A stretch of 64,000 nt of DNA from Escherichia coli 042. Lineage in GTDB: Bacteria; Pseudomonadota; Gammaproteobacteria; Enterobacterales; Enterobacteriaceae. Where the stretch lies: assembly GCF_000027125.1 (NCBI RefSeq), contig NC_017626.1. One strand, written 5' to 3'. Of this stretch, positions 30,344-31,459 are shown piece after piece (the first letter of the stretch is position 1; every line of letters begins with the position of its first letter). The notes beneath the pieces are model-generated. The model was not told the DNA's origin, searched no databases, and saw only the letters and a program-made list of their open reading frames with translations. Position numbers and translations under genes: made by a program.

Positions 30344-31459
30344 ATGAAAAGAAAAGTTCTGGCAATGCTGGTCCCGGCGTTATTAGTTGCTGGCGCAGCA
30401 AATGCGGCTGAAATCTATAATAAAGATGGCAATAAAGTTGATTTCTACGGCAAGATGGTTGGCGAACGCATCTGGTCAAATACTGATGATAATAACAGCG
30501 AAAACGAAGATACCTCCTATGCTCGTTTCGGTGTTAAAGGTGAAACCCAAATCACCAGCGAACTGACTGGTTTCGGTCAGTTTGAATACAACCTCGACGC
30601 CAGCAAACCTGAAGGTGAAAACCAGGAAAAAACCCGTTTAACCTTCGCCGGTTTGAAATATAACGAGTTAGGATCATTTGACTATGGCCGTAACTACGGT
30701 GTTGCTTATGATGCCGCAGCTTATACCGATATGTTAGTTGAATGGGGCGGCGATTCCTGGGCTTCCGCTGACAACTTCATGAATGGTCGTACCAACGGTG
30801 TTGCAACCTACCGTAACTATGATTTCTTTGGCCTGGTTGATGGTCTTGATTTTGCGATTCAGTACCAAGGCAAAAACAGCAACCGTAGCACTAAGAAACA
30901 AAATGGTGACGGCTATGCGTTGTCTGTAGACTATAACATCAATGGTTTTGGTATCGTTGGTGCATATAGCAAATCTGATCGCACCAACGATCAAGTTGCC
31001 GATGGAAACGGTTCAAATGCTGAACTGTGGTCATTGGCTGCAAAGTATGACGCGAACAATGTCTACGCAGCTGTAATGTACGGTGAAACTCGTAATATGA
31101 CTCCGGGTTCTATTGATACAGGTGTTGCCGATCGAGAAGGCAATACAATAATGCGTGATCAACTTATCAATGAAACCCAGAACTTTGAAGCGGTTGTTCA
31201 GTATCAATTCGACTTTGGTCTGCGTCCGTCCTTAGGTTATGTGTACTCTAAAGGTAAAGATATCAAAGGTGTACCTGGACATAGATATGTTGACGCTGAC
31301 CGTGTGAACTACATTGAAGTTGGTACCTGGTACTACTTCAATAAGAACATGAACGTTTATACTGCATACAAATTCAACATGCTGGATAAAGATGACGCCG
31401 CCATTACTGGCGCAGCAGCTGATGACCAGTTTGCAGTTGGTATCGTCTACCAGTTCTAA
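30344..31459 (+). CDS. yedS: OmpC/OmpF-family general porin, apparently intact
   Basis: 371-aa ORF from the ATG after a GGGAA Shine-Dalgarno, with signal peptide ([21 protein letters not shown]), porin N-terminus ([16 protein letters not shown]) and C-terminal ...VGIVYQF; yedS is a pseudogene in K-12. Confidence 0.85.

Follow-up and report, generated by a model that had tools for sequence, protein, structure and literature searches.

Among the described systems closest to the gene considered here is yedS of Escherichia coli K-12 (b1964-b1966), which has been labelled ompS1 (PMC2731931). The coding sequence at this position in strain MG1655 is flagged 'frameshifted; internal stop', bearing out the statement, in an earlier reading of the present DNA from its letters only (the sequence-only reading), that K-12 yedS is a pseudogene. 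Relative to the intact allele of strain CI5, the K-12 gene has two lesions: codon 162 is changed from CAG to TAG, and one nucleotide is missing near codon 224. In a clinical isolate a functional yedS is reported to affect carbapenem susceptibility (Warner et al., 2013, AAC 57:1935), and the detection of a porin with a described 50% homology to K-12 YedS has been reported for an STEC strain (PMC9731836). The Salmonella ompS1 gene encodes a quiescent porin that is silenced by H-NS and StpA, counter-silenced by LeuO, and activated by LeuO and OmpR (PMC4264507).

The DNA that we analyzed, referred to as the window, is a stretch of 64,000 nucleotides from E. coli 042 (NC_017626.1). The sequence-only reading had drawn attention to a full-length, uninterrupted porin gene in the window, running from a signal peptide to a C-terminal aromatic residue and provided with a good ribosome-binding site and its own terminator, and each of these elements was identified. 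The listing of open reading frames has an uninterrupted frame on the plus strand from 30314 to 31459, with an in-frame ATG upstream of 30344. The ATG at 30344 was taken as the start, as the RefSeq annotation of an identical locus agrees with it and a canonical porin signal peptide results. The features of the locus are as follows:

29943..30032, plus strand: rseX, an Hfq-binding sRNA gene (Rfam RF01401, 97.8 bits against a gathering score of 50, model positions 1-94 of 94)
30007-30027 (hairpin) with T-run to 30032, plus strand: intrinsic terminator of rseX, from the terminator scan
30033..30343, plus strand: porin 5' UTR and regulatory region, very AT-rich, with 95-100% identity between all allele classes in identity bins
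30046..30061, no strand assigned: CRP-type palindrome TGTGCGCGCGATCACA, read from the sequence, just 3' of the rseX terminator and ~290 nt before the porin ATG
30331..30336, plus strand: Shine-Dalgarno AAGGGA, read from the sequence, 7-8 nt before the ATG at 30344
30344..31459, plus strand: intact class A1 allele of the yedS porin gene, coding for 371 aa and a stop
30344..30406, plus strand: signal peptide of 21 aa, read from the translation, with cleavage at ...ANA/AE and mature start AEIYNK
30437..31445 (boundaries approximate), plus strand: class-specific block of the mature coding region, 60-75% nucleotide identity to classes B, C and D
31502..31539, plus strand: intrinsic terminator of the porin gene, with a 12-bp stem, 8-nt loop and T-run, kept in K-12

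The translation has both the A-x-A Sec cleavage site and the C-terminal aromatic residue, a phenylalanine (...VGIVYQF), and the terminator scan placed a GC-rich 12-bp hairpin at 31502-31533, followed by TTTTT, 43 nt past the porin stop codon. The Pfam profile PF00267 (Porin_1) covers the protein from end to end (residues 27-371 against profile positions 1-337 of 337, E=2e-118) with a score of 396 bits against a cut-off of 23.7, assigning it to the general bacterial porin family. A frameshift masked by a sequencing error is unlikely, because independent genomes carry the identical sequence. Overall, we consider it very probable that the window ORF is a functional, selectively maintained accessory general-diffusion porin of class A1 at yedS, with its expression and pore deduced from the comparisons described below.

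The window porin is situated between drpB (yedR)/rseX and hchA-hprSR, and is by synteny the positional orthologue of K-12 yedS, as had been proposed. In strain 135, which has an identical 1.9-kb stretch, and in K-12 MG1655 the gene order is vsr, dcm, yedJ, drpB (yedR), porin, hchA, hprS and hprR. No mobile-element genes were found flanking the window porin in the gene order at the locus. The candidate sRNA terminator that had been noted upstream, at an RseX-like position, proved to be the 3' end of the full-length RseX match. An alignment to K-12 yedS, the check that the sequence-only reading had suggested, showed that neither the amber codon nor the 1-nt deletion of K-12 is present in the window gene and that the allele itself is of a different class from that of K-12. 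Two blocks are ~98-100% identical between the window and K-12, one starting at the rseX terminator and taking in the 5' UTR and signal peptide, the other made up of the last five codons and the sequence as far as the porin terminator, but the mature coding region between them has only ~65-70% nucleotide identity and many indels. The mature coding sequences of the window gene and K-12 yedS are consequently not allelic at species-level divergence; they have the locus and its flanks in common and differ in class.

Several observations were made on the neighboring DNA. A promoter-like match on the minus strand (ATGACA-16-TATAAT, 11/12) at 29935-29962, the best of the region, overlaps the 5' end of rseX and faces drpB, for which it may serve as a divergent promoter. 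In two sampled strains drpB is itself listed as a pseudogene, interrupted by an internal stop in 38I23CPO002 and by a frameshift in 08-3914. A 76-aa ORF on the minus strand (31674-31904), located between the porin terminator and hchA, is annotated as 'hypothetical protein' WP_154675818.1 in strain 135 and is unannotated in K-12; it is probably an over-call. Farther away, a full-length Rfam match (102.5 bits) to the DsrA sRNA is located at 21521-21607 on the minus strand between yodD and yedP, as in K-12. Strain 135 has a DUF5503 pseudogene and an integrase fragment between yedL and fliE (L016, 7529-8927; window equivalent ~7.5-8.9 kb), which are apparently the remnant of an old insertion.

The porin region of strain 135 is 100% identical to that of the window, and over positions 1-38973 the identity of the window to strain 135 is 98.3%, beyond which the two diverge. 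From ~38,973 to 64,000 the window holds half of a lambdoid prophage, oriented tail-to-head, with genes for tail fibres, Lom, gpJ, tape measure, capsid, portal and terminase, in place of the mtfA/asnT/yeeJ region of strain 135. ARAGORN found no intact tRNA in the whole window, and the break to prophage sequence falls inside the tRNA-Ser position; for these two reasons the prophage appears to be integrated in a tRNA-Ser gene.

To place the window allele among its relatives, 13 further loci were fetched across the similarity ranking, and 12 alleles were translated (those of the window, of strain 135 and of ten fetched loci). The yedS locus was found to hold four deeply diverged classes, whose mature proteins are 59-73% identical between classes:

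Class A1, 371 aa (window, strain 135, ST131): 99-100% amino acid identity to the window allele
Class A2, 357 aa (MS6192, Z1323): 88-90% amino acid identity to the window allele (A1)
Class B, 352 aa (13C1065T, A22): 68% amino acid identity to the window allele (A1)
Class C, the K-12 type, 395-404 aa (F8, CI5): 60-62% amino acid identity to the window allele (A1)
Class D, 387 aa (SMN013SH2): 62-63% amino acid identity to the window allele (A1)

Megablast searches with class-specific variable regions (at least 80% coverage) of 5426 complete E. coli genomes assigned 1624 to class A (~30%), 1143 to class B (21%), 1652 to class C (30%) and 368 to class D (7%), so that the four classes together account for 4787 genomes, out of 4911 with any sequence at the locus. 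The A1 form of the window is present at 95% identity or more in ~900 of the 5426 genomes (~17%), ST131 included, and the exact 371-aa protein occurs on no fewer than 1000 public contigs, where it is called 'porin' (also its RefSeq name), 'outer membrane pore protein F' and 'outer membrane protein N'. Only two pseudogenes were identified among the sampled loci, those of K-12 and 08-3914, both of class C, and all ten of the sampled alleles of classes A, B and D were intact, as were most of class C; intactness is therefore the normal state of the locus and K-12 the exception. The sequence-only reading thus overstated the rarity and interest of an undamaged gene, as intact alleles are the norm outside K-12. 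Given the existing annotation, the public abundance of the protein and the published intact or functional yedS outside K-12, the observation on the window is correct but already known and ordinary.

The 5' region, signal peptide and terminator are common to all four classes, with the signal peptide invariant in all 12 translated alleles. Divergence between classes starts ~10 codons past the signal-peptide cleavage site and stops five codons before the stop codon. All of the indels between classes are in predicted loops (L1, L2, L4, L5, L6, L7 and L8), whereas most periplasmic turns and several strands (e.g., β5-β7) are far better conserved among classes than the external loops. The main difference between A1 and A2 is a 14-residue extension of the β11-β12 (L6) hairpin. 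Synonymous divergence is saturated between classes (dS 1.2-1.8) and is 0.03-0.10 within a class.

There are several indications of recombination at the locus. N-terminal polymorphisms and upstream haplotypes are shuffled among the classes, and the flanks appear from these comparisons to have been homogenized by recombination. Upstream of rseX, at 29800-29999, there are at least two haplotypes (74-86% versus 92-100% identity), and the haplotype of the window is that of F8, whose porin is of class C, rather than that of ST131, whose porin is of class A1 like the one in the window; since haplotype and porin class match different strains, the locus is a recombination mosaic. Within class C, near-identical stretches of K-12 and CI5 alternate with strongly divergent loop segments (L001, 3546-4738, versus L011, 847-2034), which suggests that loop-coding segments may have been exchanged by intragenic recombination. 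In the O9:H10 strain Res13-Lact-PEB21-38-A, an IS1A element is located directly after drpB, and yedS, hchA, hprS and hprR are missing (L014, 3001-3900), an arrangement that indicates a probable IS1-associated deletion of this block.

The four-class structure with its sharply bounded divergence was not described in the literature searched. Such a structure would be in keeping with a surface antigen or receptor under long-term balancing or diversifying selection. We tentatively suggest, as a possibility at somewhat less than even chances, that yedS is a long-term balanced polymorphism, a 'porin serotype' locus in which four ancient classes persist at intermediate frequency between homogenized flanks. 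If so, the classes are likely to be kept by phages, colicins or antibodies that exert frequency-dependent selection on the exposed loops. An origin of the classes from tandem paralogs was also considered and rejected, as the second porin of E. fergusonii differs in its signal peptide and is 53-64% identical to every E. coli class. This second porin (369 aa) and a TrkH-family gene are located between the class-A-like porin and hchA in that species (L018, 6663-7772 and 8231-9688, respectively). A protein search with class C returned only near-identical E. coli and Shigella entries and was uninformative across genera.

It is feasible that the window gene was recently imported from another enterobacterial genus and replaced a resident gene of the K-12 type. 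The window protein is closer to class-A-like porins of E. fergusonii (85% identity), Citrobacter (77%) and Enterobacter hormaechei (77%) than it is to classes B, C and D (60-68%), and dS between classes is as large as that between E. coli and Citrobacter or Enterobacter. We consider such an import unlikely, however, as the divergent block is confined inside the coding sequence, while outside this block the signal peptide, 5' UTR and terminator match those of E. coli at 95-100%, and the flanks are devoid of mobile-element genes. In addition, the A1 form has reached its ~17% frequency in unrelated backgrounds with differing flank haplotypes, and identity to the other genera drops with phylogenetic distance, as for vertical descent of class A. 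The porins of E. fergusonii, Citrobacter and E. hormaechei are downstream of yedA-vsr-(dcm)-yedJ(-drpB), and because class-A-like porins hold the same place in other genera, class A looks to be the vertically inherited form of the locus.

An intact gene is not necessarily a working one, and the window ORF might be a functionally dead relic that is never expressed and that a disabling mutation has yet to strike. Such a fate has precedents at this locus in the pseudogenes of K-12 and 08-3914 and in the apparent loss of the locus in one strain by the IS1-associated deletion, and the AT-rich region upstream of the window gene is probably silenced. Set against these points are the dN/dS ratios, which were 0.11 for the window versus ST131, 0.12 for A1 versus A2, and 0.07-0.09 versus the same-locus porins of E. 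fergusonii, Citrobacter and Enterobacter. Over divergences this large, such values show that purifying selection has long been sustained on the window porin. The intact state of every sampled A, B and D allele and of most of class C, the conservation of the charged pore residues (below), and the YedS-like porin detected in the STEC strain (PMC9731836) also speak against a relic, an explanation that we regard as highly improbable relative to a maintained, functional porin.

The type of porin was addressed with profiles, solved structures and a structural model. The scores of the window protein were below the cut-off for all three NCBIfam profiles: OmpF (NF007446) was the best, with 450 bits against a cut-off of 583, followed by OmpC (NF007841; 417 against 484) and PhoE (NF007544; 414 against 599). 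Since the OmpF, OmpC and PhoE cut-offs were all missed, the selectivity of the window porin is not readable from a named equivalog. Among solved structures, the best sequence match was OmpK35 (486 bits), followed by the PhoE porins of Klebsiella pneumoniae and E. coli, OmpF and OmpC, with full-length alignments to OmpK35, PhoE and OmpF at E=9e-145 to 1e-107. An AlphaFold2 model based on a 39-sequence alignment has 16 strands with a pLDDT of 79, and places residues 117-152 (L3), including a short helix, outside of the strands; the protein is thus predicted to be a 16-stranded barrel with the L3 loop inside its lumen. The top Foldseek match of the model was OmpK35 (5o77; 62% identity, TM 0.90), with OmpF at 55% and OmpC at 47-50% identity, and TM values to OmpK35, OmpF and Omp35 were 0.87-0.91.

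The window allele therefore did not live up to the 'OmpC-like' label of the sequence-only reading, although that label suits the K-12 class. By BLASTP against genuine E. coli OmpC, the window protein has 52% identity and the class C allele 62%. The L3 motif of the window allele is VEWGGD (core MLVEWGGD, as in OmpK35), whereas classes C and D have the OmpC-type motif P(E/V)FGGD, with PEFGGD in intact K-12-class alleles. The identities and the L3 motifs together are the reason that we confine the OmpC likeness to the K-12 class; the window allele resembles OmpK35 and OmpF (62% and 55%) more than OmpC (52%). In the 39-sequence alignment, the charged residues K37, R61, R98, R149, D129, E133 and D137 show no variation or a conservation of at least 90%. 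We take these to be the counterparts of OmpF K16, R42, R82 and R132 (basic) and D113, E117 and D121 (acidic), respectively.

These data also bear on whether the window gene encodes a specialized porin, such as a PhoE-like channel for anions and phosphate or a spare OmpC, and not a general pore of the OmpF/OmpK35 type. The PhoE and OmpC profiles did produce scores of 414 and 417 bits, and K. pneumoniae PhoE (5o78) was among the best structural matches. In contrast, OmpF had the highest score of the three sub-threshold profiles, identity to E. coli OmpC was just 52%, the L3 motif is that of OmpK35, and no extra lysine in L3 of the PhoE K125 type was evident. A specialized role is thus very improbable compared with that of a general-diffusion porin. 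Finally, that the window gene is simply the ancestral, undamaged K-12 yedS, the same allele without the stop codon and frameshift, is refuted despite the common locus and identical signal peptide, 5' region and terminator, as the mature region is only ~65-70% (nucleotide) and 61-62% (amino acid) identical to the K-12 class, with loop indels and a dS of 1.3, and separate intact K-12-class alleles exist (e.g., CI5, 395 aa).

As a general-diffusion porin of class A1, the window protein would be exported as a precursor by Sec, cleaved after ANA21, and recognized at its C-terminal ...VYQF signal by BAM for insertion into the outer membrane. The product would be a 16-stranded β-barrel, presumably trimeric, with a pore constricted by L3, in which the basic residues K37, R61, R98 and R149 would be opposite the acidic residues D129, E133 and D137. 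When made, the protein would be expected to pass small hydrophilic solutes, including β-lactams and carbapenems, across the outer membrane, and its exposed, class-specific loops would be a possible target of phages, colicins or antibodies. The window allele belongs to one of the four ancient classes, and K-12 holds a broken allele of class C.

With regard to expression, the GC content upstream of the porin falls to 14-22% at 30100-30250. Promoter-like hexamers at 30157-30184 and 30223-30250 were no commoner than in shuffles, and none in this region stands out above chance. The K-12 counterpart of the palindrome TGTGCGCGCGATCACA is TGTGAtcaggcGCACA, which is in a table of in-vitro footprint sites where it is labelled yedS (PMC12871828). 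From their motif, both palindromes are putative CRP sites. The neighboring rseX is repressed by H-NS (PMC8313858). We infer that expression of the window porin is conditional and normally low, because its upstream region is AT-rich, rseX is H-NS-repressed, K-12 yedS is the gene labelled ompS1 and Salmonella ompS1 is quiescent; by this analogy, which suggests H-NS silencing of the window porin, H-NS-type silencing of the AT-rich region probably holds the gene low, as for ompS1, leaving only conditional expression.

Small RNAs were considered as further regulators. The study of the clinical isolate with functional yedS is said to have found MicF-dependent control of the gene. Using a MicF sequence whose identity was confirmed by Rfam (locus L015), the pairing of MicF with the yedS start region in RNAduplex, a crude duplex model, was -7.7 kcal/mol, weaker than for 57 background start regions (mean -10.7 kcal/mol), and pairing with positions -100 to +60 of yedS was no better than with shuffled targets. 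The MicF-ompF control produced -27.1 kcal/mol. We consequently do not propose an ompF-like MicF site on the yedS mRNA, as the predicted pairing is no better than for shuffles or for other start regions of the window. For RseX and the yedS mRNA, 8% of shuffles had an equally good full-length duplex energy, so the energies carried no information and this pairing was dropped.

The presence of this gene has practical implications. The strain carries a working-looking third channel of the OmpF/OmpK35 type that is ignored by models based on K-12. The link to antibiotic permeability drawn in the sequence-only reading agrees with the reported findings on functional yedS and carbapenems (Warner et al., 2013), and if yedS is expressed, as that clinical-isolate report would imply, loss of ompF and ompC may leave the outer membrane open in strains thought resistant through porin loss. 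Furthermore, the name 'yedS' covers four very different proteins depending on the strain, some of which PGAP calls 'OmpC', and the use of the K-12 name or sequence in studies of resistance, phage receptors or vaccine antigens would mis-assign them.

Comparison with known systems places the window porin as follows. It has the position, signal peptide, 5' region, terminator and family of K-12 yedS (b1964-b1966), but relative to intact alleles of the K-12 class it is 61-62% identical and 24-33 aa shorter, with VEWGGD in L3 where those alleles have PEFGGD. The OmpS1 label used in the literature and in some annotations attaches to class C, the K-12 class, and not to the class of the window; OmpS1 of Salmonella enterica, a silent accessory porin compared here through the literature only, is a likely regulatory analog. 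With E. coli OmpC and OmpF, the window porin has in common the family, fold, N-terminal segment, C-terminal VYQF and constriction residues, and differs from them in its separate locus, its identity (52% and ~55%, respectively) and its failure to reach either NCBIfam cut-off. The gene for OmpK35 is at the ompF position, unlike that of the window porin. OmpK35 of K. pneumoniae (5o77, 9hn1), an OmpF ortholog, has the identical L3 core MLVEWGGD and a 16-strand barrel, and the window porin differs from it in L1, L4 and L7 and in an L6 that has ~13 more residues and is predicted to form an extended hairpin.
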